From: Herpetosiphon sp. NSE202
GTDB lineage: Bacteria > Chloroflexota > Chloroflexia > Chloroflexales > Herpetosiphonaceae
NCBI RefSeq assembly: GCF_042688385.1
Contig: NZ_JBHUPY010000007.1
Location: 322,110 to 386,109 of the forward strand
Reading direction: 5' to 3'
DNA: 64,000 nt
How positions within the stretch are numbered: the first letter of the stretch is position 1; each line of letters opens with the position of its first letter. The position numbers and the translations under genes were made by a program. The notes beneath the pieces are model-generated. The model did no database searches, was not told the DNA's origin, and saw only the letters and a program-made list of their open reading frames with translations. Of the stretch, positions 9,473 to 31,613 are shown piece by piece.

Positions 9473-9497
9473 ATTGCTATTGCTCCACAGACAGCGA

Positions 9498-9556
9498 CAA
9501 AGCATCGTTAAGCGACAGCCACGAACGGCAGCGATGCCACTTATAACGATGCTTTG
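9498..9556 (-). promoter_or_regulatory. stable hairpin in the grpE-dnaK intergenic region, immediately 5' of the dnaK RBS
   Basis: caaagcatcgttaa (9498-9511) pairs with ttataacgatgctttg (9541-9556), giving a 13-bp stem around a roughly 30-nt loop. Confidence 0.4.
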
Positions 9557-9567
9557 CCTAGGTGCTC

Positions 9568-10083
9568 CTACTTGCCGACTTTGACGACCGTTGGACGCAA
9601 GACCCGTTCGCCGAGCTTGTAGCCGCGGCGCAATTCGGCCACGACTTTGTTTGATTGGGCTTCGTCGCCTTCTTCAAACATAATTGCTTCGTGAACATTG
9701 GGGTCGAATTCTTCATCAACGGCGGGAATTGGTTGCAGGCCAGCGCCCTCAAGCACCGTTTCAAATTTACGTTGTACTTGTTTAACGCCGCCAATCCACT
9801 GATTGTTTTCAATTTCAGCGGGAATTTGGCCCATCGCCAAGAGCAGGTCGTCGAGCACTGGAAGCAATTTCAACATCAAACCAGCGCTAGCATTGCGAAT
9901 CAACTCCTCGCGTTCGCTTTCGGTGCGGCGTTTGTAATTTTTGAAATCGGCAATTGCGCGCATCCAGTTGGTTTTATGTTCTTCAACTTCGCGTTCGAGC
10001 GTGGCGATCCGTTCGTTCAGGCTTTCTGCATCGCCTTCAGGATTGGTATCGTCAGTTGATTGTGCTTGCACTTCTTCCGTCAT
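9568..10083 (-). CDS. grpE: nucleotide exchange factor GrpE
   Basis: 171 aa with an N-terminal acidic coiled coil and a conserved GrpE C-terminal region (...[15 protein letters not shown]...VLRPTVVKV...). Confidence 0.9.
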
Positions 10084-14816: not shown

Positions 14817-17117
14817 TTAGCGCCCAAATGCCGTCAAGGCGCGCTGGCTCAATAGTTCATCTGGCAGCGGAAACTGGGCAGTAAGCTGGCCATGGCTGCG
14901 CTCTTGAATCAAATTACCTGCCACCCCCACCAAAACCAGCGTTTCCGCATCGGCACTAACAACCGCATGATTATGCAATGGCAACTCATCGCTCCATTCC
15001 AAGGCCCCTGTTGCGGCGGCATAAACCCGATATTGCTTGCCGAGCACAGGCTGTTGCAAACTGCGTTGCCACCACAAGCGCGTGCCATCAGCCGACCAGC
15101 CGACAATTGGGGTGGTGGTTACCATCGGCCCACTTGGTTGTTGATCAAGCACGTGCCATGTTTGGCTAGCATGATCGTAACGCTGCAATTGAGCCATGCC
15201 CTGCGCCGAATCGACCGTCACGGCGGCCAAGGCTGAGCCATCGGGAGCGAAGGCAAGGGCATGGTCTGAGCTAAGCGGCAAACTGAGCGTGCTTGAGGTT
15301 TGGTTGGTTAAATCCCACCAAACCAGCTGTTGCTCAGTGGCAGTTTGACTTTGGCGATAGACCAAGGTTTGTTGGTTGGCACTAACCCACGTTTGCGGCT
15401 GATACGGCAATTCGGCCAACAGCTCAATTTTCGCTTGTTGGTTGAGTTTCATTGTGACAAAAAAAGACTTGCGGTTAACCATATTTGTTGGTTCATCGTG
15501 CAACAAGCCATAGATTGTTTGTGCCTGCCATGCAAGCGGCTCAAACTCTGGCGGATTAGCAAAAGAGACCATAGCTTGAATTAATGAATGCGGATTGGTC
15601 GTAAGATCCACATGAAATATCTGTGGGGCAAAGCGATAGGCTCCATTTGTAACAAGCAGTGCCTCTTGTCCATTAGGTGCAATTAAGCCATAGCTCGCAT
15701 ATGCTAAATCAGATTCTATCTTTGCATAATTAATTTCATGATGAGTTTGGGTTTGGGGATCATAGAGCCATAGTGTATCAGACGACTTGTCGCGGTAAAG
15801 CGCCAAAGCAGGGAGATTAGGCCGATTAATTAGTAAGCGTATATTAAGCTTTTCAATCTGTTGATCGCTCAGCACGGTTGAATAGATCGCGTATGTCGAG
15901 TTCCATTCTTCGGCTAAAAGTGCCATTTGATAGGCTGGTTGACTGGGTAACACCAGTTGGGTTGGTGATGGCTTCGCTATTGGCAAAGTCTCTGCTAAAC
16001 TAGGTTGTTCAGGCCAAAGCCACAACCGCTCAATACCTTCACCATAGCTTTGGTTCAGATCGAGCCATGTATGCTGCTGCGTAGCAGGATGCCAAAGATC
16101 AACAAAGTTGGTCATTTTGGTTTGCATTTCATAGGTATACCAATAGCCAGCTTGATAGCTAGGAACGAGGTTAATCCCTAGCCCAGAATGATAGTCTTCG
16201 AGTAATTGACCTGTTTTGAGGCTATACATTTGCCAATGATTATGTGGCGGATACTCATACCCAAACGCAATTTGATCGAGGTTAGGTGCAACTATCATAC
16301 TAAAGGGATCAAGTGCTAACGCTGGCGAAAGCTCAATCGTACGGATTGGCGAACCATCAAACGCATTCAACTCAATTACGGTTTGGCGATTGGCAAGCAC
16401 AAAAAGTCGTTGTTGGCTCGATGTGACTAAACCTTCAACGCTGGCCAAAGTTAAGTTGTGGTTGCGTGGTGCATACAGCCAAAGTTGATAACTATTGTGC
16501 GGTTGAAACCAAAAATCGCCAGTTGCGCTAAGCCAGCCTGATCTAATTGTTGAAACTTTCGTGAGGATTGTTTGCTCTAAAACGATCCCGTCACTTAATC
16601 GCACATGCAGCCAACCCATGGGCAGATCAAGTATTTTGCCACGCCGTCCATACACAATATAGACTCCTTGAGCATCCTGATCAAGAGTAACGAATGGATC
16701 AAGCGAGCCAAACAAATCGGGTGCGGCCACCTCCCACACGACCTTATTCTCTTCCAGATCAAACAAACACAATGTTTCATACTTAAAGCAAATCATCATT
16801 GAGGTGTTTGGAATCGCAGAAACTAGCCATGGTTCATACAAACGTTGGGCCGTTAACGTACCAGCCGTGGTTAGCCATGCATAATGCTTATCAAGCTCAG
16901 TTCCAGGCCGAGTTATCTTCATCAACACCCGCTCAGTGGTCGGTATGCTCAAGGCTTGGGTGGGCGTGGCAATTGGCTGGCTTGGGCTGGCTTGGGCTGC
17001 CGACGGCAAAGTTGGCGTAGCTTGCGGAATGACCGTTGGCGTGGACTGTTGCGCTTGGCAATTGCTCAACAACCCAACCAATACCCCCAATAAAAGCATT
17101 CGATAGACTTTTTGCAT
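14817..17117 (-). CDS. paralog A0 of the tandem family: large lipoprotein with beta-propeller (PD40/YVTN-like) repeats
   Basis: 766 aa. Lipoprotein signal MQKVYRMLLLGVLVGLLSNCQAQQ is nearly identical to that of 19624-21954. Pro/Thr/Ser-rich linker; repeated APDG/SADG motifs; the most divergent member. Confidence 0.75.
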   Translation of the reverse strand: MQKVYRMLLLGVLVGLLSNCQAQQSTPTVIPQATPTLPSAAQASPSQPIATPTQALSIPTTERVLMKITRPGTELDKHYAWLTTAGTLTAQRLYEPWLVSAIPNTSMMICFKYETLCLFDLEENKVVWEVAAPDLFGSLDPFVTLDQDAQGVYIVYGRRGKILDLPMGWLHVRLSDGIVLEQTILTKVSTIRSGWLSATGDFWFQPHNSYQLWLYAPRNHNLTLASVEGLVTSSQQRLFVLANRQTVIELNAFDGSPIRTIELSPALALDPFSMIVAPNLDQIAFGYEYPPHNHWQMYSLKTGQLLEDYHSGLGINLVPSYQAGYWYTYEMQTKMTNFVDLWHPATQQHTWLDLNQSYGEGIERLWLWPEQPSLAETLPIAKPSPTQLVLPSQPAYQMALLAEEWNSTYAIYSTVLSDQQIEKLNIRLLINRPNLPALALYRDKSSDTLWLYDPQTQTHHEINYAKIESDLAYASYGLIAPNGQEALLVTNGAYRFAPQIFHVDLTTNPHSLIQAMVSFANPPEFEPLAWQAQTIYGLLHDEPTNMVNRKSFFVTMKLNQQAKIELLAELPYQPQTWVSANQQTLVYRQSQTATEQQLVWWDLTNQTSSTLSLPLSSDHALAFAPDGSALAAVTVDSAQGMAQLQRYDHASQTWHVLDQQPSGPMVTTTPIVGWSADGTRLWWQRSLQQPVLGKQYRVYAAATGALEWSDELPLHNHAVVSADAETLVLVGVAGNLIQERSHGQLTAQFPLPDELLSQRALTAFGR

Positions 17118-17138
17118 AGCCTTCTTCCTCTCTGGCTC

Positions 17139-19574
17139 CTATGGTTGCGAATAGACATATTCAATAGTTGATAATTGCGATGAATAAATTGGCTCTAAAG
17201 CAGCGAATTTGGCCAACGGCAACCAGTGTTGATTGACCCGCTCTAGAACATACAGATCCTTGAACGTATCCAAAACTACGCGCTGGCCAAACCAATCACT
17301 TTTGCTTAGATTGAACGAATCAGCCAAGAGCAGCGCATGGCCAATTTGGCTGCTACGGCTAAACGTCAGCAAGCGCGAATTAATCATTTGATTGTCGGCA
17401 AGCAAGTAGTATTGACTATCACCCGACCATGTACCTTGAAAACTCTTCGACTGCGGCTGGCGCAGCAACTCCAAACCCGTTGCACTATCAAACATCAAGA
17501 GCGTGCCATAGTCCAAGGGATAGGTGCGCTCAAACAGCATAATCGTCTGGCCATCGGGCGCAATCTCAATTTTAAGCGCCTTGCTGGCACTGGTTGGCAT
17601 GAGCAATTGGGTCAGTTGGCTGACGATTGAATAGCGCTGAATTTGATCGTGGGGATCTTGATAGACAACAATTGGCGAGCCAACCGTATACCAAAGCTGC
17701 TGCACATCAGTCGAATCGAGCAAATCGGTGCCTTGGCTTGGATCATTGAATGCCGTTTGCCATAACAGATAGCTATCAGCACCAGAGTTCGAAGTAAGGC
17801 CAACAATCGTCAACTGGCGACCATCCCAATAGATTGGGGTTAAGTAGGTTGCGGCGGGCAGTTCGGCAAAAACACTCCTTTTGCCAGTTTGCAGATCAAG
17901 GGCAAGGCACCGATTGACCCGTGAACGTGTATTGCCATCGAAATAATAGCTATAGCAAAGCGCCACGCTGCGATTATCCGGCGCACTGACTCCCGCCACA
18001 TCACTCCACATTCGATTTTCGGCTGGTTCTAAATCAATAGTGATGGTAGTTTGGCTAGTAGGGTCAAATAGCGCCAAATCTTCATCATTAAGCCCAATCA
18101 GGAGCGGTGGTGCATGCTGCCGCGCAATGCTATAGCTATTTGCATGCTGCATCAATTCACTCCAGCCTTGAGGCCAAAGTTGCTTTATGCCCACACCATC
18201 ATTGGCCAATGCCAAAGGTTGATCTTCGACTGGCGCAGCAGCAAGCGGGGCATTCTCTGGCAGCGTTAGCCGTAAGGGTTCTAAGCGAGGAGTATCGACG
18301 ATGGGCAACAGGGAGAGCTTAGGAATAAGGGTAAACCTGCTATATTCTGGCTGCGTTGTTTCAGGTTGATGGACCGGTTCGATAGTTTGAGTTTGGTTGG
18401 TTGTCAGATCAATTGTTTCCAAGCTCCCATTGCGATTGAGCATAATTAAGCGTTGATCATCAAGAAAGCGAATGCGTTGGCTAAACCCAGTTTGATTCAG
18501 ATCTAGTGCTGCAAAGGCTAATAAGCGTTGCCAAAAGCCAAGCCCATTGCCAGCGCGATCGTAGGCAAAAATCTGCTGCGGTGAATCATAATCTTCGGAG
18601 GGGTCGATAATGACAACCACATAAGTGAGTTCGGGCGAAACCAGCATCTCCTGAATGCTAGTAGCGCGGGGTAAATGTAAAAATTCAGTTTGGTTGAGCG
18701 TTTGACGCGTGCGCAAATCGATTTCGCTGACCATGCCCGAACCAAAGACCAAGGCCCGCTGGCCGTCGGCGGCCACCGCAGCAAACTCAAGCTGACTAAA
18801 CCATGGTTCGGCAAAGCCTTCACTGGCAGCATCAAAGCCAAACAATTGACCGTCGGCCAAAAGCCATGGGCCAGCAGCGGTTGGCAAGACTTTGGGTTGT
18901 TGGCGCAGTAGCGGCGCTTGATATTGGCGCAATTCCAGACCACTGCGGCTATCCAGCCCACGCAAACGCACCGTCGCAGGCTGAAATGGGTCATTCGTGG
19001 CTTGCTTTTCGATTAACCAAACCACGTCCATAAACGGATCGTTGACCACATCCAAAATGCTGGTTTCAACGTGAGCTTGTTGGCTATAAATTGGCACTTG
19101 CCACAAACGCTGATCATCGCGCAAAGAACGGGCTTCGAGCCAGGCATAATTGCGCCCCAACAGCACTTCACGCTCGCGATCAATTGTGATTATCGGCTCT
19201 TGATCGATGAGCTTGCCTCGCGTTTGAGGCTGATTAACACCATCCCAGATTGTAAGTTCAGCCCCACTCCCAACCAACACGAGCTGCTGATCACCTAGAT
19301 CAAGCGTATCGCTGGTGGGAAGTGGCTGACTCGGCTGCGGCTGACTTGGCTGCGGCTGGGTTGCAATACTCGGGGTTACGATTGCTTCCGCAACCATGGT
19401 GGCGGTTGGAGCAGGTGCTGGGGGCGCTGGCGTTTGGGCCGCCAAAATCATGGCGATTAATAAGCCAATCCCAGCCAGCACCGGCAGAATTTGCCAGCGA
19501 CGGCCTGAACCGCCAATCTTGGCGCGCTGCGAATGTTCTTCCATCAGCAATACCTCTCGTAGGGTTGCCCTCAT
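17139..19574 (-). CDS. paralog A1: signal-anchored large beta-propeller-repeat protein
   Basis: 811 aa. Short cytoplasmic N-terminus plus TM (RRWQILPVLAGIGLLIAMILAA), PAPPAPAPT linker, conserved core LEARSLRDDQRLWQVPIYSQQAHVETSILDVVNDPF...KQATNDPFQPATVRLRGLDSRSG, APDGQ and WSGDS motifs, C-terminal ...YVYSQP. Confidence 0.75.
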   Translation of the reverse strand: MRATLREVLLMEEHSQRAKIGGSGRRWQILPVLAGIGLLIAMILAAQTPAPPAPAPTATMVAEAIVTPSIATQPQPSQPQPSQPLPTSDTLDLGDQQLVLVGSGAELTIWDGVNQPQTRGKLIDQEPIITIDREREVLLGRNYAWLEARSLRDDQRLWQVPIYSQQAHVETSILDVVNDPFMDVVWLIEKQATNDPFQPATVRLRGLDSRSGLELRQYQAPLLRQQPKVLPTAAGPWLLADGQLFGFDAASEGFAEPWFSQLEFAAVAADGQRALVFGSGMVSEIDLRTRQTLNQTEFLHLPRATSIQEMLVSPELTYVVVIIDPSEDYDSPQQIFAYDRAGNGLGFWQRLLAFAALDLNQTGFSQRIRFLDDQRLIMLNRNGSLETIDLTTNQTQTIEPVHQPETTQPEYSRFTLIPKLSLLPIVDTPRLEPLRLTLPENAPLAAAPVEDQPLALANDGVGIKQLWPQGWSELMQHANSYSIARQHAPPLLIGLNDEDLALFDPTSQTTITIDLEPAENRMWSDVAGVSAPDNRSVALCYSYYFDGNTRSRVNRCLALDLQTGKRSVFAELPAATYLTPIYWDGRQLTIVGLTSNSGADSYLLWQTAFNDPSQGTDLLDSTDVQQLWYTVGSPIVVYQDPHDQIQRYSIVSQLTQLLMPTSASKALKIEIAPDGQTIMLFERTYPLDYGTLLMFDSATGLELLRQPQSKSFQGTWSGDSQYYLLADNQMINSRLLTFSRSSQIGHALLLADSFNLSKSDWFGQRVVLDTFKDLYVLERVNQHWLPLAKFAALEPIYSSQLSTIEYVYSQP

Positions 19575-19623
19575 TGGAGCATACTATCGAACCTTCTCAC
19601 AATCATAGCAAACTATGCTGAGC

Positions 19624-21954
19624 TTATGGTTGCGGATATATATACACAATATTGAGCGGGCTGATCCTATAATTCGCAATTGTACTTAAGTGCTGCCAAC
19701 CAAGTTTGTCGCGCCTGAGCAGCGCGAGCGTATTAGCAACTTGCAGCACTACATGGCGAGCCGACCAATCGCTTCTGGCCCAACTTAGTGGTTGTGCAAC
19801 CTGGATTAACTCGCGCGCTTGGCCTTGCGCGTCGATCATTGCTAAACTTGAATTAACAATCTGCTCATGGTGGATTAGATACCATTGGCTATCGCCCGAC
19901 CAATGCCCTTGATAATTTTGCGCCATAGGATCGCGCCATAGCTCCAAGCCAGTCCTAGCATCGATCATTCGGGCAACCCCATAGCTAAATGGCAATTGCT
20001 GCTCGAACACCATAACCCGCTCGCCATTGGGTGCGATTTCAAGTTTAAGCGTATGGTTGGGGTTGGTCGCCAGCAGCAATTGGCGTTGCTGCGATTCGAT
20101 TGCATAGCTATACAGCTGATAATTCAGATCTTGATAGATGATCGTTGGCGAACCCAGCTTATACCAAAGTTGCTTGATTTCAGCAGTGTTGAGCAACCTT
20201 TGGGTTTGTGAACGATCCTCGGCCAAGGTTTGCCACAATCCATAAGCTTGATCACTATCTGGGTCGATGATGCCTGCCATGGTTAATTGACGACCATCCC
20301 AGTACATTGGAATGATTAAATTTGGCGCGGTTGGCATTTCACCAAAATCAGAGGTTTGGCCGGTTTGCAGATCAAGCGCAAGGCAGCGTTTCACCCGTGA
20401 ATCAGCTTTTGGCTCTGCATAATAGCGCGTGCAAATAACGACACTTTGATTATCGGACGCACTAACCGCGCCAAAATAATCCAAACAACACCGTTCATTT
20501 GTGCCCAAATTGAGGGTAATTGTGGTTTGGTTGGTTGGGTCATACAGATCGATACCAAAGTCTTGCACTGCCAGGATCAATGGTGGAGCATTCGAACGCG
20601 CAATCGTATGCCGAAATGGATCAACGATTGACGTATACGTGCCATCAGTTTTAATCTGGCGATATTCAGACCCAAGCCACCTCAAGAGCAAGGGTTGTGG
20701 CGCGGGTACGGGGCCAATCAGTTTGGTTTCTGGCTGGCTTAACGCTGCATCTGCAACCGCTGCTAGCTCTGGTTGAAAGAATGCTGGCAATAGATCGAGT
20801 TTGGGGATCACAATAAACCCATCAAATTGCGCAAACTGCTCACCATCAAGCCGATCGCTGGTTGCTAAAAACTGGTTCGATTTACCAGTTCGCAAATCAA
20901 AGAAATCGAGGTTGCCTGTCGATTCCAGCATTAAAAGCCGATGCTCATCGAGAAACTGAAGATAAAATTGGCTACCTGGCTCAGATCCGTCGTAGCCGTC
21001 AACCAACAACTTCCGCTCCCACGAGCCAACAATCTTACCTTCACGATCATAGGCCATAATCTGTTCTAAATTACTTGAGGAGCTATGTTCCAAGCCAATT
21101 AAAACAACATAGCTAAGATCTGCCGAAACCAACATTTGCCCAAGCCGATTGCGCTTTGGCATGGCTTCGAGGGTGGTTTGTTTGAGGATTTGCTTGGTTG
21201 CAAGATCAAGTTCTGTGATAATCCCATTGCTCAACGCTAATACTCGCTTGCCATCAGCTGCGACTTGGACAAACTCAACGCCACTTAATCTGGCTTCGCC
21301 AAAGCGCGCCTGATCCTGATCGAATGGCAATAACTGACCATCGGCCAAGAGCCACAAACCATATGCGGTTGGCAAAAGGCTGGGGTAAGCATTGACCAAT
21401 GGAGTCTCAAGCTGGCGCAAGGCTAGGCCACTGCGGCTATCCAGCCCGCGCAAACGCACCGTGGCTGGCTGAAATGGATCATTGGTCGCTTGTTTTTCAA
21501 TCAACCAAACTAGCTCATTAAACGGATCGTTGATCACATCTAAAATGGTGGTTTCGAACTGAGCTTGGCGGCTGATAATTGGCAGTTGCCACAAACGCTG
21601 ATTATCGCGCAACGAACGAGCTTCAAGCTGATAGGTATACTGGATAATCACAACTTCGCGTTCAGGATCAAGAGTTAACGCATAGCTTATGTCTACTGAA
21701 TCATGCGCCGTACCACGCGCTTTGAGCGGTTTGCGGCCATCCCAAAGGAACATATACCGATCAGAATCGATAAATAAAACATGGTTACCACCGAGATCAA
21801 CCCCAGCGCCGCCAAGACTTGCCCCGTTTGGCGTGGCGGAAACAGTGGGCGTAGTTGGCGATTGCTGGGCTGCTTGGCAATTGCTCAAGAGCGCTATCAA
21901 TCCGCCGAGCAAAAGCATTCGATACACCTTCTGCATAACTTCCTCATTCATCAA
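19624..21954 (-). CDS. paralog A2: lipoprotein form
   Basis: 776 aa. ...MQKVYRMLLLGGLIALLSNCQAAQQ lipobox (the start may be the internal MQKVYRM at 21936). Same conserved core as A1 and A3; C-terminal ...VYIYPQP. Confidence 0.75.
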   Translation of the reverse strand: MMNEEVMQKVYRMLLLGGLIALLSNCQAAQQSPTTPTVSATPNGASLGGAGVDLGGNHVLFIDSDRYMFLWDGRKPLKARGTAHDSVDISYALTLDPEREVVIIQYTYQLEARSLRDNQRLWQLPIISRQAQFETTILDVINDPFNELVWLIEKQATNDPFQPATVRLRGLDSRSGLALRQLETPLVNAYPSLLPTAYGLWLLADGQLLPFDQDQARFGEARLSGVEFVQVAADGKRVLALSNGIITELDLATKQILKQTTLEAMPKRNRLGQMLVSADLSYVVLIGLEHSSSSNLEQIMAYDREGKIVGSWERKLLVDGYDGSEPGSQFYLQFLDEHRLLMLESTGNLDFFDLRTGKSNQFLATSDRLDGEQFAQFDGFIVIPKLDLLPAFFQPELAAVADAALSQPETKLIGPVPAPQPLLLRWLGSEYRQIKTDGTYTSIVDPFRHTIARSNAPPLILAVQDFGIDLYDPTNQTTITLNLGTNERCCLDYFGAVSASDNQSVVICTRYYAEPKADSRVKRCLALDLQTGQTSDFGEMPTAPNLIIPMYWDGRQLTMAGIIDPDSDQAYGLWQTLAEDRSQTQRLLNTAEIKQLWYKLGSPTIIYQDLNYQLYSYAIESQQRQLLLATNPNHTLKLEIAPNGERVMVFEQQLPFSYGVARMIDARTGLELWRDPMAQNYQGHWSGDSQWYLIHHEQIVNSSLAMIDAQGQARELIQVAQPLSWARSDWSARHVVLQVANTLALLRRDKLGWQHLSTIANYRISPLNIVYIYPQP

Positions 21955-21957
21955 CGT

Positions 21958-24291
21958 CTATGGTTGTGGATAAACATAAATAACCTTAAAGACGTACAAC
22001 CAAGTGCTGCGTACAATGCCGCTGAAACTGGCCAACGCCAACCAATGCTGATCAATGCGCTCGACAAGATACAAATCAGCATTCAGTTGCAAGGCTAAAC
22101 GCTGGCCAAACCAATCGCTCTTGCGCAGCGTGAATTCATCAGCAAGCAGCAGTGATTCGCCCAACCGCCCTTGACGGCTCACACTAACCAAGCGTGAGTT
22201 AATCGCGTGGCTTTGGCCGATAAAGTAGACGTTACTATCGCCCGACCATTGGCCTTGAAATTGCCGCAACTGGTCGCGCCACAACTCCAAGCCCGTGCTG
22301 CTATCGAACATCAACAACGTGCCATAGCGCCAAGGGTAGCTTCGCTCAAACAGCATCATCGTTTGACCATCAGGCGCGATATCGATGCCAAGGGCCTTGG
22401 TATTACTGGTCGGCATCAGCATTTGGGCTTGGTGAGCCAAAATTGAATAGCTCTGAAGTTGATCGTCCCAATCGCGATAGACGACGGTGGGCGCACCAGC
22501 CATGTACCAAAGCTGGAGCATATCAGCCGAATCGAGCAAATGTGTGGCTTGGCTTGGCTCGTTGGCTGAGGCTTGCCACACCAAATAGCGATCATTCCCA
22601 AATCCAGGAGTGTAGCCAACAATCGTTGCCTGCTGCCCATCCCAGTAAATCGGTGTTAGGTAAGTTGCGTCGGGCAGCTCAGCAAAAATTCTGGTTTGGC
22701 CAGTTTGCAGATCGAAGGCAAGACATTGATTGAAGCGCGAATCTTCGTTCATATCGAAACGATAGCTGTAGCAGAGCAAAATACTGCGATTATCGGGCGC
22801 ACTGACCCCTTCCAAATCACTCCAACCCAGAACATTAGCAAGCTCCAAATCAAGGGTGATCGTCGTTTGGTTAGTCGGGTCAAGAATCTGCAAGCTTGCG
22901 TCTGCCCGCGCAATTAACAATGGCGCTGCATTCCAACGGGCAAGGCTATAGATATTCGCTTGCTGCCAAATGCCACGCAAACCTTCAGTCGTAAGCTGCC
23001 TGGTTTGCTCCTCGTCGTTCAGCAACGCCAAGGGTTGGACTGCTAACGGCACAGGCGCAAGCGGAGCCTTAGCCGCAATCGCGCTATCGACGGGTTTGAG
23101 CGCCGGTGGATCGACTGCTGGCATGAGCGAGCGCTTAGGAATAAGCGCAAAACTCGCATAATTTGGTTGCTCAGCCATAGGGCTAGTCGCCAGATCCATG
23201 AAGAAGCTTTGGTCGGTTGCCAGCTCGATAATTTCAAAGAGGTCAGTGTTATGCAGCAGGATTAAATGTTGATTATCGAGAAAGCGAATCCGTTGCCTAC
23301 CATCTCTATGCTCAGAATAATCCCCATAATAGACTAATGGGCGTTGCCACAAACCAAGCGGGTTGCCAGCCCGATCGTAGGCAAAAATCTCGAGCGCTGA
23401 ACCCAGGGTGTCGGAGCTATCGATAACCACAACTACAGTCTTGAGGTCAGGCGAAACTACTAGCTGTTGAAGCCGATCAAGCTGTGCTAGGTGCGAAAAT
23501 TCGGTTTGGTTGAGCGTTTGACGCTTGAGCAGATCGATCTCGCTGATTATGCCCGCGCCAAAAACCAGCGCCCGCTGCCCATCGGCTGCCACCGCAGCAA
23601 ACTCTAGTTGGCTAAAGAATGGTTCGCCAAAACCATCACGAGCTGCATCAAAGCCAAACAACTGGCCATCGGCCAAGAGCCATGGGCCAGCAGCGGTTGG
23701 CAAGACCTGCGGTTGTTCGTGTACCAACGGCGCTTGATACTGGCGCAATACCACGCCACTGCGGCTATCCAGCCCGCGCAAACGTACCGTTGCAGGCTGA
23801 AATGGGTCATTGGTGGTTTGTTTTTCCAGCAACCAGACCAGCTGCGCAAAAGGATCATGAACCACATCCACAATCGTGGTTTCGAATTGGGCTGCTTGGC
23901 TGTGAATGGGCACGTGCCATAAACGCTGATTATCGCGCAGCGAACGGGCTTCGAGCCAAACAGAATTGCGACTCAACAGCACCTCACGCTCGCGATCAAG
24001 TGTGATCGTCACATTCCAAGCGGCGAGCGTGCCTCTGGGTTCGGGCTGATTAACGCCATCCCAAAATTTAAGCTCCGCCTTGCTGCCAACCAATAAGAGC
24101 TGCTGATCGCCCAGCGGCGTACTTGGGGTTATGGCTGCCTGTTGCGTTGGCTCGGGCGCTGGCGATGCTGGAGTTTGGGTGGTTAACATCAGTGTGATCA
24201 ATAAACCAACCCCAGCCAGCACTGGCAATATGTACCAGTTGTGCCATGAACGACCAATTTTGGTGTGCTGCGAATGCTCTTCCATCAACAA
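21958..24291 (-). CDS. paralog A3: signal-anchored form
   Basis: 777 aa. MLMEEHSQHTKIGRSWHNWYILPVLAGVGLLITLML anchor; core about 75% identical to A1; C-terminal ...IYVYPQP. Only a 3-nt gap to A2. Confidence 0.75.
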   Translation of the reverse strand: MLMEEHSQHTKIGRSWHNWYILPVLAGVGLLITLMLTTQTPASPAPEPTQQAAITPSTPLGDQQLLLVGSKAELKFWDGVNQPEPRGTLAAWNVTITLDREREVLLSRNSVWLEARSLRDNQRLWHVPIHSQAAQFETTIVDVVHDPFAQLVWLLEKQTTNDPFQPATVRLRGLDSRSGVVLRQYQAPLVHEQPQVLPTAAGPWLLADGQLFGFDAARDGFGEPFFSQLEFAAVAADGQRALVFGAGIISEIDLLKRQTLNQTEFSHLAQLDRLQQLVVSPDLKTVVVVIDSSDTLGSALEIFAYDRAGNPLGLWQRPLVYYGDYSEHRDGRQRIRFLDNQHLILLHNTDLFEIIELATDQSFFMDLATSPMAEQPNYASFALIPKRSLMPAVDPPALKPVDSAIAAKAPLAPVPLAVQPLALLNDEEQTRQLTTEGLRGIWQQANIYSLARWNAAPLLIARADASLQILDPTNQTTITLDLELANVLGWSDLEGVSAPDNRSILLCYSYRFDMNEDSRFNQCLAFDLQTGQTRIFAELPDATYLTPIYWDGQQATIVGYTPGFGNDRYLVWQASANEPSQATHLLDSADMLQLWYMAGAPTVVYRDWDDQLQSYSILAHQAQMLMPTSNTKALGIDIAPDGQTMMLFERSYPWRYGTLLMFDSSTGLELWRDQLRQFQGQWSGDSNVYFIGQSHAINSRLVSVSRQGRLGESLLLADEFTLRKSDWFGQRLALQLNADLYLVERIDQHWLALASFSGIVRSTWLYVFKVIYVYPQP

Positions 24292-24323
24292 TCCTCTCAG
24301 GGTATACAGTTTTACGCATTGGC

Positions 24324-24419
24324 TTAGCGGGGATACACATAGCGTACCCTGCTTCTAGGCGTGGCTTCGAGTTGGATGCGCCAAGCAAGCTCCCAATCTG
24401 CATCAGTTAGCTCAAATTG
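24324..24419 (-). pseudogene. out-of-frame remnant of the canonical C-terminus of the family, downstream of truncated paralog B1
   Basis: Minus-strand translation gives QFELTDADWELAWRIQLEATPRSRVRYVYPR*. This aligns with the C-termini of B2 (...QIDWRISEDVGLSEEIYYVYPR*) and B3 (...TEWRMAPMEINIETIRYLYPR*) but is in a different frame from the B1 ORF, which ends at 24412. Confidence 0.55.
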
Positions 24420-25932
24420 GGCAATCGGTTGGCGGCGCTAAAGGCGCAGGAGTTGCCAAAGAGTCAAGCACATAATTTGGCGTGGGCGTTGGGTCGACTA
24501 TTGCGTGAAACGCTGGGCCTAAAGGCTCAACCGCTGCCCCAACGACTTCGCCCAGCCAATAAATCTGTTGGGTATGCGCTTCAATCGGAGCTACGAAACT
24601 CTCAGTTGTGTCGGTTGAGCTATTCCAGCGATACACCAACGAGTGGTAAAAAAGCAGCTCTACGCTGGTCGGCGCTTCAAGCCATTGGTCAGCAATGCTT
24701 GCTGGGTAAAATAAGGTAGACGAATTCTGAAAACGCCGTGTTTGCAGTTCACCATCGGTTAATCGGTAGACCGAATAGTAATTCCGCTGTTGATTAATAT
24801 CGACTTCTTTTGCATTTGTATCACTCTTAACCAGCAACATGGTCTGATCAAGCGCTAAGATACTCCCGAATATCTCGCCCTTGATCGGTTGCTTTAAGCG
24901 CACTCTGCGCTCGGCCCCAGTCGCCCAATTGATCAAGCCCAGCTCGTCGCTAGTGCGAAAAATAGCCAATTCAGTTTGTTGGCCATCGCCCATAAGCGTG
25001 TTGTTGTAGCTCATTCCAAAGCTGGTCTGCAGGTTGGTCGCCGTGTCTAAGCGATAGAGTTGGCGCTGCTGCACAAACCAAATCTGGCCAGCAGCGGTCA
25101 CCACTGGCGCGCTATCCGGCTGAAACTGAAGATCGTTGCTTGGAGCTAACGCCCGACCATCAGCCAAGGCCAAATAGCTTAAGTGCCAAAGATTGGGCTG
25201 TTCGCCTTGCTCAAGCAAATACATGCCAGTTTTGGCCTGATCAAGCGCAAGCTTGCCGCCAAATTGATTGGGCAATAGCTGGTAGCGCCAGCGCTCACGC
25301 TTGCTCAGCAAATCGATTGCAATCAATTGCCGATTGCGGGGGATCAGCACAGTTTGCTGGGCTGGCAACAGCGCAACCAAGCCCTCGCTATTGGCATCAA
25401 TCGCAGCAATTGGCACTAATTGATTGGGATCGGCACGGTTCAAATAAACCTGCGAGCCAGCAGTATCGCGATTGATTAGATAGATATGGCGCTCAAACGC
25501 AGGTTCTGGAATTGCGGTTACAGTTGGCAATGGCGAAGCAGTGGCAAAAATAGCACGGGTCGCGACCGCCAGCGGAACAGCATCTGGCTTAATCGGTTCG
25601 GGCTTAATCAGCTCAGGGTCAAGCGTGGCTAGTGGGCCAAGTTGGTTGATTGGCAGCGCTGTGCGAGCTTGAGCACTTGGCGTGGCACGAGGAGTTGTGC
25701 TTGGAAATAGAACAATCGTGGCGGTCGGGCTGGGTTTAATCGTGGGCGAGGCAGCAAGCGCCACGGCTGTTGGCTGCTTGGTAGGGCTAGGTTGGGCTTG
25801 ATCAACAGCGCTTAAACCAAACAGCATACGCAGAACTAAGCCAAGCCCAATTACTGTGCAACTCAGCAGCAAAACCTGCCAACGGCGCACGTCATTACGA
25901 GCCTTGGCGGCAGAACGATCATCCATCAGCAA
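24412..25932 (-). CDS. paralog B1: internally deleted, frameshifted derivative (possible pseudogene) of the B-type members
   Basis: 506 aa. Anchor RRWQVLLLSCTVIGLGLVL. Collinear with the N-terminal roughly 480 aa of B2 and B3 up to ...YWLGEVVGAAVEPLGPAFHAIVDPTPTP, then terminates. The roughly 400-aa C-terminal domain seen in B2 and B3 is missing except for the out-of-frame tail at 24324-24419. Confidence 0.6.
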   Translation of the reverse strand: MLMDDRSAAKARNDVRRWQVLLLSCTVIGLGLVLRMLFGLSAVDQAQPSPTKQPTAVALAASPTIKPSPTATIVLFPSTTPRATPSAQARTALPINQLGPLATLDPELIKPEPIKPDAVPLAVATRAIFATASPLPTVTAIPEPAFERHIYLINRDTAGSQVYLNRADPNQLVPIAAIDANSEGLVALLPAQQTVLIPRNRQLIAIDLLSKRERWRYQLLPNQFGGKLALDQAKTGMYLLEQGEQPNLWHLSYLALADGRALAPSNDLQFQPDSAPVVTAAGQIWFVQQRQLYRLDTATNLQTSFGMSYNNTLMGDGQQTELAIFRTSDELGLINWATGAERRVRLKQPIKGEIFGSILALDQTMLLVKSDTNAKEVDINQQRNYYSVYRLTDGELQTRRFQNSSTLFYPASIADQWLEAPTSVELLFYHSLVYRWNSSTDTTESFVAPIEAHTQQIYWLGEVVGAAVEPLGPAFHAIVDPTPTPNYVLDSLATPAPLAPPTDCPI

Positions 25933-26081
25933 ACCCTCTCACTCGTGCTTGACCATGGGGAATAGTACGATCAAGCCTAGCGTAAGCGTCATGGGTTGCA
26001 CAATGATAGCAAGCTGATGCCAAGCTGAGTCGGGGGCTGAGGATCATAACCTGTGATCCAATCCCCAGCCCCTCTATTCAA

Positions 26082-28784
26082 TTAACGTGGATACACATAA
26101 TAAATCTCTTCGGAAAGGCCAACATCCTCGCTAATCCGCCAATCAATCTGCAATGCTTGGCCATCCCAGCTAAGTTGTTCAAGGCTTGGTTGCCACAAAT
26201 GCTGGGCCAGTAGCGTTTTGCCATCGTTATACAAGGCTACTGGTTTTTTGAGCGGATCACGCTTTGTACTAAATACGAGGCTTGGTTGTTGGGCGTTATA
26301 AACGCCAAGCCGTTGTTCGCGGACAATATTCCCAAAATCCAGCAACAACCAACGGCCATCAGGCGACCATAAAAATGGGCTTTCGCTACTCTCGGAATAC
26401 GCGCCTGAATCTAGTTGATACCAGCGTTGCTGCTCAAGCTGGTATAAGGCCGGAGCACTACTGCCATCAGCTGTTGGCAACATAAAAGCAAAGCTATTGC
26501 CTTCGGGCGAAAAACTCAGCGCATCGGCGGCTAATGGCAGCAAGGGCAGAGCAATATCGTGGCTCTGCTGCTTAACCAAATCGAGCACTCGCAGCAGCAT
26601 CGTTTTATTAGCAGCCGCCAGCGGGTAGATGAGCCAGCGTTGATTGGGCGCAACATACACCCGGGCCAGAATCGCATTGCTCACATCAGGAATGTTGGCC
26701 ACAATCGCGGGAATTTCAGCGATTTTTTCGGCTTGGAATGGCGGCCCGAGCTGCACCCGCCAAAGCGGTTGCGGGTTTTTGCTGGTTTGCAGAAAATAGA
26801 TGCTATCGCCTTGCCAAGCAAGTGGCTTAGCCCATTTCAATTCTGGCCAGGTGCGTGAATCGGCGAGCACATTCCATTCGCCAGTTTGGGTATTGATTTG
26901 CAGCAGTTGACTTGCCCCGATAAATTGATCGTTGCTGCGCATATCTTGGCCTACCACCACCATGCTTTGATAATTTGGCGCAAGCATGCTGTCGATAAAA
27001 CTTTCGTCGTTCAGAATCTTTTCAAATTTCCATTCGACAATTTGCTGGCTCACCGGATCAAGCAATTGCCATGTTGTTAATTTGGGGTGTTGCAGCACTA
27101 AGGGCGGCTGATTATAGCGCTCAAACAGCCTAGCGCCTTCCTCAACCAATACTTCAAGCGTTTGATCAGACGATAGCCGTTGCAAGCGTAAATCTAGGCC
27201 AAGCCGATCGCCAAAAATTGCCACTGGCTGAATGCTTGGAGGCTGAATCGTTGGCAAATTCGGCTGATCATACATTGGCACCATGGTTGGTAATGGGGTA
27301 ACCGCCGCTTGATATTCGCTATTCGCCAGATTAATCGCCGGGCCAGCGATCTCACCCAGCCATGCGATGCGATGATCGCCCCACACTGAAGCCGGAACAA
27401 CCTCGGTCAAGCTATTGGTTGCTACATTCCAACGGCTAACCAACCGCTGCTCACGCTCCCAATCGAAGCTTGAGATGAACCATTGATCGGCAGTTATGCC
27501 GGGATAGATTGAGCTAAGGCTGTCAAATTCGCTAATCCCAAGCAACTGCCCAGTTCGCAGGTTGTAGACCGAGCTGAAATACCGATCGTCAACGCGTGGA
27601 TCATCGCTACTGATCATGCTCTTAACCACCAAGGTTTGTTGGTTATGCGAGAACATGGCGCTGAGCAGATTGCCTTGAAACGGCGGATTTAATGCTACTT
27701 GCTGCTCATTGCCACTCGCCCAATCGATCAGGCTCAACGTGGTTGGTGCACGAAACACGCCTAAGAATGGTTGTGTGCCATCACCAACAATCTCATTCTT
27801 ATTAAGCGCACCAACATCGCGTTTAGCCATGGTTATGGGGTCAAATTGAAACAGTTTATCCTCTTCGATGCCCCAAATCTTGCCATCGCTGGTCATGATA
27901 TGGCTATGGCCTGGGAGAGTTAATGAGCTTGGGCCAGCAAGCAGTTGAGCATCCTGAATTGTGTGATGGCTCCACGCCCAACTTGCATCAACGCTACTCT
28001 GATCAAGCACATAGACCCCGCTGCCAGTTTGATCGATCGTCAGCATCGCTTTATGTTCATACTGGTTTTTGGGCAATAATTGCATACTCCAACGCGGCTG
28101 GCCCGTTTTGATGTCAATTGCAAATAAGCTTTGATTGCGCGGCAGCAGCAAGGTTTGTTGCTCGGGCAACAGTGCCATAAAGCTTGCTGCATACTCATCG
28201 ACGGTCGCAATTGGCACAAAGCCTGTGGCCGCAACTCGTACCAATTGATATTGCTCTGTATCAGCACGCACAATAATTGCATAGCTATGAGTTTGGCCAA
28301 CTGGCGTAGCTTGCGCAGTGAGGGTTGGCAACGGCGTAGGCGTTTGAAGCCCAAGCGTTGCTGCGGGAATCGTCGTTGTTGGTTGTTGAATAACGGGCAC
28401 AATCGTTGGCAACAACTCAGCATCATGCAGATCCTTGGTTGGAACGCTGGTGAATGCTGGCTCAATCGTCGCTAAGCGAAACTCGCCTGGGTCTGCTGGC
28501 AAAACTTGGATTGGCGGCGCTGATTGCTCTGGTTGCCAGGCAGGAAATGGTGCAGCGATCAAGGTCGGGCTAGGTTGAATACTTGGCGTAGCTGAACCAA
28601 GCAAGGCCACCGCACTCGCTTCAACATGCGCTTCATCAAGCGTACTTGGCATGAATGTGAGCACCAGCATCAAGCCAATTAAGCCCAGCGCACCAAGCAC
28701 TGGCAATACCCGCCACCAATTACGATCCTTGCTCAGTTTCACTCGTTCCCGTTGTGGTTGCATCGATATTGCTCCTCTATTCAA
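26082..28784 (-). CDS. paralog B2: signal-anchored two-domain beta-propeller-repeat protein
   Basis: 900 aa. MQPQRERVKLSKDRNWWRVLPVLGALGLIGLMLVLT anchor (an alternative start lies at 28763). The C-terminal domain carries LWSPDGRWLL (PD40 motif) and ends ...YYVYPR. Confidence 0.75.
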   Translation of the reverse strand: MNRGAISMQPQRERVKLSKDRNWWRVLPVLGALGLIGLMLVLTFMPSTLDEAHVEASAVALLGSATPSIQPSPTLIAAPFPAWQPEQSAPPIQVLPADPGEFRLATIEPAFTSVPTKDLHDAELLPTIVPVIQQPTTTIPAATLGLQTPTPLPTLTAQATPVGQTHSYAIIVRADTEQYQLVRVAATGFVPIATVDEYAASFMALLPEQQTLLLPRNQSLFAIDIKTGQPRWSMQLLPKNQYEHKAMLTIDQTGSGVYVLDQSSVDASWAWSHHTIQDAQLLAGPSSLTLPGHSHIMTSDGKIWGIEEDKLFQFDPITMAKRDVGALNKNEIVGDGTQPFLGVFRAPTTLSLIDWASGNEQQVALNPPFQGNLLSAMFSHNQQTLVVKSMISSDDPRVDDRYFSSVYNLRTGQLLGISEFDSLSSIYPGITADQWFISSFDWEREQRLVSRWNVATNSLTEVVPASVWGDHRIAWLGEIAGPAINLANSEYQAAVTPLPTMVPMYDQPNLPTIQPPSIQPVAIFGDRLGLDLRLQRLSSDQTLEVLVEEGARLFERYNQPPLVLQHPKLTTWQLLDPVSQQIVEWKFEKILNDESFIDSMLAPNYQSMVVVGQDMRSNDQFIGASQLLQINTQTGEWNVLADSRTWPELKWAKPLAWQGDSIYFLQTSKNPQPLWRVQLGPPFQAEKIAEIPAIVANIPDVSNAILARVYVAPNQRWLIYPLAAANKTMLLRVLDLVKQQSHDIALPLLPLAADALSFSPEGNSFAFMLPTADGSSAPALYQLEQQRWYQLDSGAYSESSESPFLWSPDGRWLLLDFGNIVREQRLGVYNAQQPSLVFSTKRDPLKKPVALYNDGKTLLAQHLWQPSLEQLSWDGQALQIDWRISEDVGLSEEIYYVYPR

Positions 28785-28949
28785 TCATGAGTGGCTATAG
28801 GCTATGGGCTTTGGGAACCGCGAAGCACACGAAGGTTTCCTTTTTTAGCCACGAATTGCCCGAAGCATAGATTGTAGTCACAGATTTTTTGCCTTCTGCC
28901 TTTTGCCTTTTGCCTTCATCCCCGATCCCCAACCCCCGATCCCCAACCC

Positions 28950-31613
28950 TCAACGCGGATACAGATAGCGAATCGTCTCAATATTGATTTCCATTGGAGC
29001 CATGCGCCACTCAGTTTGCCATTCTTGCTCCCGCCATGTCAACTGGGTAAAGGCCGGATTCCAAGGTTGGCCAGTTATGAGCGTTTTTCCATCGTTATCT
29101 AAGGCTAATAATCGATGCTCAGTCGGCTCAATCTGCGAACGCAAAGCTAGGCTTGGTTGCTGCGTATTATAGATGCTCAGGCGACGTTTAAGCCCAACAT
29201 AACCAAAATTCACCGCTAGCCACTTACCATCAGGCGACCATAAAAACTGGTCTTGGCTATGAGCATAAAAGCCTGCATCAAGCTGATACCAGCGTTGCTG
29301 CGCAAATTCATACAAGCCAACATAGTGATCATGCTTGGGGTTCAAGCTTGGTAGAATTAACCCAAAACGCTCACCATCGGGCGCAAAGCTCAAGCCCACC
29401 AGATCGATCAATGGCAGCGTCAATTCATGGCTTTGTTGCGCGACCAAATCGAGCACCTTCACCAACATGGTTTGCTTATTCGCCGTTGCCAGGGGATAGA
29501 GCAACCAGCGTTGGTTGGGAGAAACAATGATCCTGGCATAGATTGGGGCACTTGTAACTGCTGGATCATTGGCAACAACGCTGGGAATTTCGGCCAGTTT
29601 TGTGGCTTGAAACGGTGGGCCTAATTGCACCCGCCAAAGCACCTGCGGGTTCGGCCCAGCTTGGAGAAAATAAGCGCTATCGCCGTGCCATGCAATTGGT
29701 TTAGCCCATTGCAACTCAGGCCATGTCCTTGAATCAGCGAGAATATTCCATGCGCCGGTTTGCACATTAATCTGAACTAACTGACTGGAGCCAGTAAATT
29801 GATCACTGCGCTGTAAATCTTGGCCCACAATCACCAGCAAGCTGCGATAATCGGGTGCCAGCAAGGGGTCAAAATCCAACTCACCAGTACTAACAATTTT
29901 TTCAAATTGCCATTCCACAGTTCGTTGGGTGCTTAGGTCGAGCATTTGCCACTGGCGTGATTGGGGGCGTTGTAGCACTAAGGGCAACTGATTGTAACGC
30001 GGAAACGTGCGCACCACAAAATCGGCAAGTAACTCCGTGTGCAAGTCGCTATCGATCCGCTGAATGCCACCGTTAGCAGCAATCAAGGCCACGGGCTTGG
30101 TCGTAGCAGGCACGATCGTTGGCAAAGCTGTCTGTTCATAGATCGAAACAGGGCTAGGCAAGGGCGTAACCGCTGCTTGAAATTCACTTGCAAGCGGTTC
30201 AATTGGCACACCGCTAACCTCGCCAAGCCACAGAATGCCATTATCGCCAATGATCGTTGGCTCAACCACTTGGGTCAACGTATTGGTTGCCATATTCCAA
30301 AGGCTAAGATCGCGTTTGGAACTCACATAATCAGGCGTGATTACTAACCATTGATCGGCACTATTGGTTGGATAGAGGCTGCTAAACATATCATGCTTGA
30401 TCGTGGCAATCAATCGGCCAGTTTGCAGATCATAGGCTAAATAGTCATCATTTGCGCTGAACGAACTGGTAGGCGGAGCCGCACTATCAATAACTAAGAT
30501 CGTTTGATCGTTGGATAAAAAGCCTGCTCTGGGCATCCACTCAAATGGGCTTGCGTCTAATTCAACTGAACGCTCATCGCCAGTTGCCCAATTGATCAGG
30601 CTCAATGTTGTTGGGCTACGAAATACGCCCAATAACGGTTGGCTGCCATCGCCCAAAATTGTAGCATTGGAGAGTGAACCAAATTCTTGGTAGGCTTGGG
30701 TTGCAGGGTCATAGTGAAATAGGGTTTCCGGTGTGGAAAACCAAATATGGCCAGTGCTAGTGCGCAACAGTTGATCAACTGCTGGCAATTTAAAATTTTG
30801 GGCTGGTTGCAGCAAAATTCCATCATTCAACCCAAGGTGACTTAAACGCCAGGTCATCGTTGCTTGATTAATTTCAATCAGATAGACCCCAGTGCCAGCC
30901 TGATCAAGCGTCAAGTGACTTGTATAATCAAGCGCCGTTTTGGGCAACAAACCATAGCGCCATAGTTCGCGACCAGTCGCCAAATCAAGCGCAACCAATT
31001 GCTGATTGCGCGGAATCAAGACACGTTGTTGCGCAGGCAACAAGGCCATAAAGCGGTCGGCATAGGCATCAACGGCAGCAATCGAAACCAAATTATTGGA
31101 GTCGATTCGCACGAGGTTATGGCCCGCAGGATTATGCACAATCGCATAGCGCTGACTTTGGCTGGCTGGCGTTGAGCGCGCAGTTGGCGCTGGCAACGGC
31201 GTAACGGTTGCGGCTGGTAGATTGGTTGGTGCTGGCTCAATCACTGGCACAATCGTAGGTAAGCGAGTCGGATCACCGGGCAAATTAGGAGGAACGGTTG
31301 TCAGCGCAAGTTCTGGTTGCACCGTCACCAAACGAATCTCGCCCAGTTTATCGGGCACGAGCCGAATTGATGGTGGCTCTGTAGGGCGGGTAGGAAACGG
31401 CGCAGCAATCAAGGTCGGGCTAGGTTGAATACTTGGCGTTGGCGAGCCAAGCAAGGCCACAGCGCTTGGTTCAATTGGTGGCGCATCAGGCTCATTGGGC
31501 ATCAATGTCAGCGCCAGCATCAAACCAATTAAGCCCAGCGCCCCCACCACTGGCAACACCCGCCACCAATTGCGATCCTTGCCAAGTTTGACTCGCTCTC
31601 GTTGTGGTTGCAT
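28950..31613 (-). CDS. paralog B3: signal-anchored two-domain beta-propeller-repeat protein
   Basis: 887 aa. N-terminus MQPQRERVKLGKDRNWWRVLPVVGALGLIGLMLALT is nearly identical to B2. FLWSPDGKWLAV and SFAPDGERF motifs; C-terminal ...RYLYPR. The 5' flank is duplicated with that of B2. Confidence 0.75.
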   Translation of the reverse strand: MQPQRERVKLGKDRNWWRVLPVVGALGLIGLMLALTLMPNEPDAPPIEPSAVALLGSPTPSIQPSPTLIAAPFPTRPTEPPSIRLVPDKLGEIRLVTVQPELALTTVPPNLPGDPTRLPTIVPVIEPAPTNLPAATVTPLPAPTARSTPASQSQRYAIVHNPAGHNLVRIDSNNLVSIAAVDAYADRFMALLPAQQRVLIPRNQQLVALDLATGRELWRYGLLPKTALDYTSHLTLDQAGTGVYLIEINQATMTWRLSHLGLNDGILLQPAQNFKLPAVDQLLRTSTGHIWFSTPETLFHYDPATQAYQEFGSLSNATILGDGSQPLLGVFRSPTTLSLINWATGDERSVELDASPFEWMPRAGFLSNDQTILVIDSAAPPTSSFSANDDYLAYDLQTGRLIATIKHDMFSSLYPTNSADQWLVITPDYVSSKRDLSLWNMATNTLTQVVEPTIIGDNGILWLGEVSGVPIEPLASEFQAAVTPLPSPVSIYEQTALPTIVPATTKPVALIAANGGIQRIDSDLHTELLADFVVRTFPRYNQLPLVLQRPQSRQWQMLDLSTQRTVEWQFEKIVSTGELDFDPLLAPDYRSLLVIVGQDLQRSDQFTGSSQLVQINVQTGAWNILADSRTWPELQWAKPIAWHGDSAYFLQAGPNPQVLWRVQLGPPFQATKLAEIPSVVANDPAVTSAPIYARIIVSPNQRWLLYPLATANKQTMLVKVLDLVAQQSHELTLPLIDLVGLSFAPDGERFGLILPSLNPKHDHYVGLYEFAQQRWYQLDAGFYAHSQDQFLWSPDGKWLAVNFGYVGLKRRLSIYNTQQPSLALRSQIEPTEHRLLALDNDGKTLITGQPWNPAFTQLTWREQEWQTEWRMAPMEINIETIRYLYPR

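Follow-up and report, generated by a model that had tools for sequence, protein, structure and literature searches.

Internal out-of-frame deletions, which yield gene remnants or truncated paralogs, are a general phenomenon in bacterial genome evolution. A gene shaped by such an event, B1, is described here from a 64,000-nucleotide (nt) stretch of Herpetosiphon sp. NSE202 (contig NZ_JBHUPY010000007.1, forward-strand positions 322,110 to 386,109; this whole stretch is referred to as the window). B1 shares with gene remnants in general the disruption of the ancestral frame, a downstream relic decaying by indels and stop codons, and a junction shared by descent. It differs from them in its upstream part, which is not decaying and is under purifying selection; domain loss is therefore indicated, not pseudogenisation. 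According to the reading preferred here, to which a probability of roughly 90% is assigned, B1 is a full-length member of its family that lost the second of two β-propellers by an old out-of-frame deletion and whose remainder was kept by selection. This is ordinary domain loss with a retained remaining domain and constitutes neither a new mechanism nor a new kind of system.

Among described proteins, TolB (2w8b, 4jml), BamB/YfgL (4imm) and YncE (3vgz) have the fold predicted for residues 148-464 of B1 (Foldseek E ~1e-8, template modelling (TM) score 0.4-0.6), and they are located outside the cytoplasmic membrane, as B1 would be according to its model. The likeness is restricted to the fold (8-13% identity), with no functional equivalence implied, and B1 differs in being tethered by an N-terminal helix and a stalk of ~100 residues. 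Weak sequence matches of B1 to PQQ_2/BamB stay below threshold. Two consecutive propellers, as predicted for the full-length ancestor, are known from Utp21 (4nsx), EML1 (4ci8), tricorn protease (1k32) and Apaf-1 (5juy). These tandem propellers are eukaryotic or archaeal, cytoplasmic and attached to other domains (~10% identity), whereas the Herpetosiphon family is membrane-anchored and no catalytic domain was detected in it.

The B1 gene and its intact paralogs

On the minus strand of the window, seven consecutive paralogous genes occupy ~14.8-31.6 kb, namely B3, B2, B1 and four A-type genes (766-811 amino acids, aa). The array is flanked by an M4 peptidase gene on one side and a PIG-L-family deacetylase gene on the other. 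In B-type proteins, an N-terminal membrane anchor is followed by a disordered Pro-rich stalk, a first β-propeller, a short disordered linker and a second propeller ending with ...Y-x-Y-P-R. Orthologs of B1 were obtained from protein searches, which gave two truncated proteins (P0001, 506 aa, locus L001; P0002, 483 aa, locus L002) and one full-length protein (P0003, locus L004). L001 is the Logan assembly SRR26329190, L002 is H. geysericola DSM 7119 and L004 is H. llansteffanensis CP188824.1. The genes compared and the predicted parts of B1 are as follows (pLDDT, predicted local distance difference test):

24412-25932, minus strand: B1 open reading frame (ORF), 506 aa from TTG at 25932, from the ORF list and its translation; truncated single-propeller B-type member
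25819-25917, minus strand: membrane anchor, predicted helix of residues 6-38 (...RRWQVLLLSCTVIGLGLVLRMLFGL...), from the AlphaFold2 secondary structure; also in B2, B3 and the full-length ortholog
25498-25818, minus strand: predicted disordered stalk rich in Pro, Thr and Ala, residues 39-145 (pLDDT < 50, without secondary structure)
24541-25491, minus strand: N-terminal β-propeller, residues 148-464 (27 predicted strands, ~7 blades); the retained, conserved part
24415-24540, minus strand: remnant of the inter-propeller linker, which forms the variable C-terminal end of B1 (...ATPAPLAPPTDCPI, then stop); residues 482-506 predicted as disordered
26082-28784, minus strand: B2, intact full-length paralog of 900 aa, used as reference; ortholog in L001, L002 and L004
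28950-31613, minus strand: B3, intact full-length paralog of 887 aa, used as reference; ortholog LL_892 in L004

The real start of B1 is probably the ATG at 25926, which gives 504 aa, since the orthologs begin with MDDRS and a Shine-Dalgarno-like element (GAGAGGG, 25940-25934) is located 7 nt upstream. An earlier reading of the window, made from the sequence only, had described B1 as collinear with the start of B2 and B3 and then stopping at 24412. This was confirmed: B1 aligns with residues 5-508 of B3 (38% identity) and 12-521 of B2 (32%) and ends with TGA at 24414-24412. BLASTP of B1 against B2, B3 and Bx, a paralog in H. geysericola, gave E-values of 1e-59 to 1e-78 over ~500 residues, which corresponds to the homologous first propeller. 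Like the intact B-type proteins B2, B3 and P0003, with which it aligns in these parts, B1 has the anchor and the Pro-rich stalk. The C-terminal ~380 residues of B2 and B3, forming the second propeller (about 355 codons are lost in B1), have no counterpart in it, and the in-frame C-terminal motif ...W-R...Y-x-Y-P-R of the family is represented by an out-of-frame relic only (24324-24424), which is homologous to the C-terminus of the intact paralogs. Instead, B1 ends with a lineage-specific junk peptide, which reads PPTDCPI in the window and PPTNSPNSR in L001, each followed by the stop, whereas in L002 an earlier TAG follows PTPTPH.

Just 3' of B2, after its stop codon, the minus strand of the window contains a G+C-rich inverted repeat, GGGGCTGGGGAT...ATCCTCAGCCCC (25985-26075). 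Because of this repeat, B1 may form its own transcription unit. A simple terminator scan did not call the repeat at this position, since it is without a T run.

Origin, extent and age of the deletion

A full-length allele was sought in relatives and found in H. llansteffanensis. P0003 (ACP8Y2_01655) has 888 aa, is encoded at the syntenic position and is 74% identical to residues 1-499 of B1 (79% in the N-terminal propeller); its C-terminus ends with ...VFEQLQLTAAEWQPTWRIQLTTTARNGIRYVYPR. The H. llansteffanensis array is collinear with that of the window, and the pairs are B3 and LL_892, B2 and LL_898, A777 and LL_775, A776 and LL_752, A811 and LL_798, and A766 and LL_765. Using blastn, window positions 26028-24427 matched L004 9899-11497 (81% identity) and window positions 24409-14430 matched L004 12582-22667 (80.5%), which leaves ~1.07 kb of L004 unmatched in between. 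The breakpoints were mapped by reading these regions directly, which gave the following two features:

24424-24425 (BLAST bounds 24409-24427), minus strand: deletion junction; the 5' side matches L004 up to 11499, the 3' side from 12566 onwards
24324-24424, minus strand: relic of the last ~33 ancestral codons, comprising the final strands of the lost propeller 2 and a TAA at 24326-24324; out of frame (+1) with B1

The segment without counterpart in the window is L004 11500-12565, which comprises 1,066 nt and codons ~500-855 of 888. When this segment was removed from L004 in silico, the remaining sequence gave gap-free alignments to L001 and L002; its alignment to the window required a single gap of 1 nt. 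The gap marks a further, window-specific 1-nt deletion between 24423 and 24422 (ccaattcgcc -> ccgatt-gcc). The alignments indicate that one out-of-frame deletion of 1,066 nt made the B1 junction; it shifts the frame by itself, because 1,066 equals 1 modulo 3. The sequence-only reading had proposed an internal deletion of about 1.2 kb with a frame change, of which the deletion and the frame change are borne out, while the size had to be corrected to ~1.07 kb. No microhomology at the breakpoints was visible in the H. llansteffanensis sequence. A frameshift separate from the deletion was also considered, the tail frame reading QPIAQF just upstream (compare QPVAIF of B2). It was ruled out: QPIAQF results from out-of-frame reading of sequence on the 5' side (CCA ACC GAT...), the full-length ortholog reads PTKPVLL at this place, and the 1,066-nt deletion accounts for the shift by itself.

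The junction is identical in three independent assemblies (window, L001 and L002). Synonymous distances (dS) support the grouping ((L001, L002), window), to which H. llansteffanensis is external; the dS values of B2 are 0.09 between L001 and L002, 0.28-0.29 between these and the window, and 0.44-0.47 to H. llansteffanensis. A more distant B1-type gene is present in L005 (ENA metagenome ERZ28654353 scaffold_25393), the N-terminal propeller of which is 54-56% identical to that of B1. Since this gene also carries a second propeller (65% identity to its counterpart in H. llansteffanensis), two propellers appear to be ancestral for B1-type genes. The distribution points to a single deletion, which postdates the separation from H. 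llansteffanensis and predates the divergence of the three truncated lineages (dS ~0.3). Because the identical junction is common to three lineages separated by such a distance, the deletion is old, not recent.

Structures were predicted with AlphaFold2 using small family alignments. The B1 model comprises a helix (6-38), a disordered region (39-145), an all-β region (148-464; 27 strands, pLDDT mostly 85-95) and a disordered end (482-506). A Foldseek search with this model gave 1,113 PDB chains at E ≤ 0.001, with 7-bladed propellers at the top (target-normalised TM 0.5-0.64). Single propellers were matched with E-values of 1e-8 to 1e-10 and 8-13% identity, namely 1jmx_B (quinohemoprotein amine dehydrogenase), mLST8 (8era_C), WDR5 and TolB. 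The model of the full-length ortholog has β-structure at 146-461 and 501-885, separated by a disordered linker at 477-499, and matched tandem-propeller proteins (Utp21, EML1, tricorn) with E-values of 1e-13 to 1e-17. B1 had been expected to be a naturally truncated single-domain variant, and structure prediction and fold search indeed give a lone β-propeller, the use of which is supported by purifying selection. As judged from the models, the 5' breakpoint (codon 499/500) falls where the linker gives way to the first strand of propeller 2, and the relic corresponds to the last strands of this propeller (residues 855-885). The limits of the deletion would nearly coincide with those of one structural domain, and the other domain would be unaffected, which is presumably the reason why the deletion survived.

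The following history is proposed. B1 would descend from a full-length ancestor belonging to the Herpetosiphon-specific family. In an ancestor shared by the window organism, H. geysericola and the third strain, a deletion would have occurred that began in the final codons of the inter-propeller linker and extended to a point ~33 codons short of the stop. Translation would then quit the ancestral frame at the junction and stop within a few codons (in the window, after PPTDCPI), and the window lineage would later have lost one more base beside the junction. The product would be a type-II-anchored protein with a long flexible stalk, which presents a single β-propeller outside the membrane; ~100 nt from the 3' end of the old gene would persist as an untranslated relic. 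We infer that the B1 protein is made and exposed outside the membrane; judged from its fold, its propeller may act as a binding module.

Selection on the retained part and fate of the tail

The ratio of non-synonymous to synonymous divergence (dN/dS) among the three truncated copies, which covers the time after the deletion, is 0.26-0.30 (bootstrap 95% range 0.18-0.40). The intact paralogs B2, B3, A777 and A811 gave 0.17-0.30 and the M4 peptidase ~0.09. Within B1, the propeller has the lowest values (0.17-0.21), and the stalk is the least constrained part (0.34-0.43). None of the ~500 codons of B1 is an internal stop in any of the three lineages. When the 171 substitutions between the window and L001 were placed at random, the frame was still open in 0.16% of 5,000 trials, and the mean number of stops was 5.6. 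Because its dN/dS is like that of the intact paralogs and an open frame is rare in the random simulations, B1 appears to behave as a functional gene, the N-terminal part of which (anchor, Pro-rich linker and propeller) has been under purifying selection since the deletion. The hallmarks of pseudogenes, i.e., dN/dS near 1 and stops or frameshifts, are absent from the B1 frame and found in the 100-nt tail only.

For this tail, the sequence-only reading had proposed an out-of-frame match of 24324-24419 to the C-termini of B2 and B3, which proved correct. In a frame different from that of B1, this region reads QFELTDADWELAWRIQLEATPRSRVRYVYPR up to a stop codon and matches the family C-terminus; the +1 frame 3' of B1 reads RRQPIAQFELTDADWELAWRIQLEATPRSRVRYVYPR up to the stop, with CAA at 24419-24417 and TAA at 24326-24324. 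A profile of the C-terminal 45 residues was built from five further family members, with B1 excluded, and searched against the full set of 2,357 stop-to-stop peptides that the six frames of the window contain. It matched only B2, B3 and the 37-residue tail peptide, the latter with E = 1.2e-5 and 21.9 bits over profile positions 14-45, i.e., up to the C-terminal end. Compared to the C-terminus of the full-length ortholog (...LTAAEWQPTWRIQLTTTARNGIRYVYPR), 18 of 32 residues are identical. The identity between the window and H. llansteffanensis is 56% in the tail and 74% in the retained part.

The state of the tail differs between the lineages. A 4-nt deletion is present in L001, while L002 has an in-frame TAA and a change of YPR to YSS. 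The window tail is still open, its only changes so far being substitutions and the loss of 1 nt at its 5' edge. Relative to B1, the tail is in frame +1 in the window and +2 in L001 and L002, because the window lost one extra nt at the junction. Given the 4-nt deletion in L001, the TAA and the loss of YPR in L002, the differing frame offsets and the lower identity (56% versus 74%), the tail appears to be an untranslated relic without protein-level constraint, which decays independently in each lineage. A promoter and terminator scan around the tail gave nothing above chance. An ATG-initiated ORF of 111 aa (24068-24403, minus strand) begins within the relic, uses the third frame and extends into the 5' end of A777, with which it is not in frame; in all likelihood, this ORF is spurious.

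Of the alternative explanations, a dead pseudogene, whose 506-codon frame is open only since too little time has passed, would fit the loss of half of the ancestral protein and a C-terminal end that is different in every lineage, with the earlier TAG of H. geysericola dropping 23 more residues. It is nevertheless unlikely: dN/dS after the deletion is as in intact paralogs, chance would rarely have spared the frame, the propeller core is the most conserved part, and the start codon, the element resembling a ribosome-binding site and the membrane anchor are all retained. Programmed ribosomal frameshifting (recoding), which would join B1 to the tail and produce an N-terminal propeller with the canonical ...RYVYPR end, is still harder to accept and has a very low probability. 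The tail frame of the window is open from 24437 to its own stop and starts right at the stop codon of B1 (ATT TGA G), and the tail is less diverged than synonymous sites, which would speak for recoding. Yet the shift needed would be +1 in the window and +2/-1 in L001 and L002, owing to the 1-nt indel, the tail is broken in L001 (4-nt deletion) and L002 (TAA), and the B1 stop codons are at non-homologous positions. Neither a slippery heptamer nor an upstream Shine-Dalgarno-like stimulator is visible at the site, and the tail residues correspond, in the models, to the last strands of propeller 2, which is now gone. Programmed frameshifting was rejected on comparative grounds, as the shift site and the open downstream frame are not conserved in the relatives.

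A sequencing or assembly artefact, be it a collapsed paralog repeat or a base-calling error, has next to no probability. Paralog arrays are places where assemblers can collapse repeats, but the same junction is found in two other independent assemblies from different projects (L001 and L002) at 87-88% nucleotide identity, and B1 is with 32-38% protein identity to B2 and B3 too diverged for a collapse. It is likewise highly improbable that the short form is ancestral and H. llansteffanensis gained its second propeller by fusion or insertion, an order of events for which the finding of a single close full-length ortholog could be cited. All other B-type paralogs have two propellers, the distant L005 gene also has a second propeller, 65% identical to that of H. 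llansteffanensis, and an out-of-frame relic with the C-terminal motif of the family and a stop codon is explicable only as a leftover. Loss of propeller 2 from a full-length B1, with the remainder kept by selection, is accordingly preferred.

Several points weigh against this preferred history or limit its precision. The tail of the window differs from those of L001 and L002 by Jukes-Cantor distances of 0.12-0.17, which is below the B1 dS of ~0.30, and may leave room for some constraint at the DNA level, e.g., by signals of the downstream gene; the values fall inside the range of neighbouring non-coding DNA (p 0.10-0.31). The timing is coarse, as only four or five related genomes were found. 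Between L001 (3014-4534) and L002 (10001-11452), dS of B1 is 0.25, compared to 0.09 for the flanking B2 and 0.12 for A811, which suggests recombination or a different history of this segment. The alignments behind the structure models were shallow, with 9 and 11 sequences, and the mean pLDDT was 70-71; the number of blades and the part that the last strands play in closing propeller 2 were judged from secondary structure only.

With the history preferred here, B1 provides a precisely mapped and dated case of a two-domain surface protein turned into a one-domain protein by a single out-of-frame deletion at a disordered linker. For annotation, B1 should be called a gene instead of a pseudogene and be kept separate from the tail. 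The deletion can also be used as a marker in tracing how an uncharacterised array restricted to Herpetosiphon evolved.

The family and its array in related genomes

The sequence-only reading had taken B1 as a sign that the array is actively remodelled by duplication and deletion. B1 alone does not show this, its junction being old, whereas the cross-species comparison of the arrays bears it out. The gene content differs between every pair of genomes compared, and the alignments indicate that genes were repeatedly gained and lost, that chimeras arose and that additional internal deletions took place.

Between the B2 and B1 orthologs, L004 contains an extra member of 806 aa, LL_806 (7443-9863), which ends with LYLYPR and is ~23% identical to the B-type. 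It is not present in the window, L001 and L002; the corresponding space is 53 nt in the window (26029-26081) and 2.6 kb in L004. The order of genes is PIG-L, B3, B2, B1 in the window (26082-31613 for the B3 and B2 part) and PIG-L, B2 ortholog, Bx, B1 in H. geysericola (L002 4302-9791). Bx is 59% identical to B2 in the C-terminal propeller and 45% in the N-terminal one, and H. geysericola is without a close B3 ortholog. Both the window (14817-17117) and H. llansteffanensis (765 aa) have an intact A766. The H. geysericola ortholog (L002 15698-17185) is split into an N-terminal ORF of 370 aa and a C-terminal ORF of 123 aa, which represents another internal deletion, and a remnant of 122 aa is left in L001 (8817-9185).

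A chimeric gene of 520 aa is located in L002 (11640-13202) and L001 (4652-6214), where the window has A777 and A776 (a position homologous to window ~24291 downstream). It combines an A-type leader and anchor (MEKHSQRAKIGRSW...) and a Pro-rich stalk with a lone B-type second propeller and ends with LLFVYPR; the homology to the window ends ~100 nt into the gene (window position 24188). As this is the gene next to B1 in both loci, gene fission was considered, with leader and lone propeller as the missing half of B1. This was ruled out: the propeller is 32% identical to the B1-type ones of H. llansteffanensis and L005 and 37-40% identical to the B2/B3 type, and the leader is A-type. The propeller of the chimeric gene thus belongs to a separate lineage.

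In L005, the B1-type gene is interrupted in the inter-propeller linker (1340-1430). The N-terminal frame ends with ...HTKPITEGMAKA and a stop, and the frame of the second propeller is open upstream (...LLKEWPKLNPTSWLYQVRGDQQSINVAKIVV...). Compared to H. llansteffanensis, 5 nt are missing between AAG CCA and GAA TGG; the site that corresponds to the 5' breakpoint of B1 is no more than ~6 nt away. The interruption could be an independent truncation or an error of the metagenome assembly. Because B1 was kept under selection, the L005 frameshift is near the homologous site and the relatives have the chimeric gene, it is conceivable, albeit rather doubtful, that truncation at the linker is recurrent and selected, and that the array forms a modular repertoire of surface propellers which sheds and re-pairs domains. 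If so, one may speculate that these predatory filamentous bacteria could use the repertoire for surface recognition.

The family as such is restricted to Herpetosiphon and uncharacterised. No array protein reached any cut-off in Pfam and NCBIfam scans; PQQ_2 (PF13360, BamB-like) scored 13.4 bits, below its gathering threshold of 27.6, and PD40 (PF07676) scored 14.1 bits, in B3 only, below its cut-off of 20.9. In a sequence-profile search of the PDB, nothing was above threshold, and the best match was 4imm_A with E 0.59. A profile search of 1.84 billion cluster representatives gave 21 matches at E < 1e-3, six of which were below 1e-30, so that the family is a very narrow one, and word-indexed protein searches gave 2-3 matches each. 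A scan of genome contigs for further homologs returned H. geysericola alone, a scan of metagenome contigs with a profile of the B1 clade gave no match, and in the literature on Herpetosiphon and propellers nothing about this family was found. The two subfamilies have related ends, with the terminal motif ...Y-V/I-Y-P/S-Q-P in the A-type (window 14817-24291) and ...Y-x-Y-P-R in the B-type. Otherwise they are only ~21-25% identical, over parts of the second domain. In the predicted model, the shared terminal motif forms the final β-strand.

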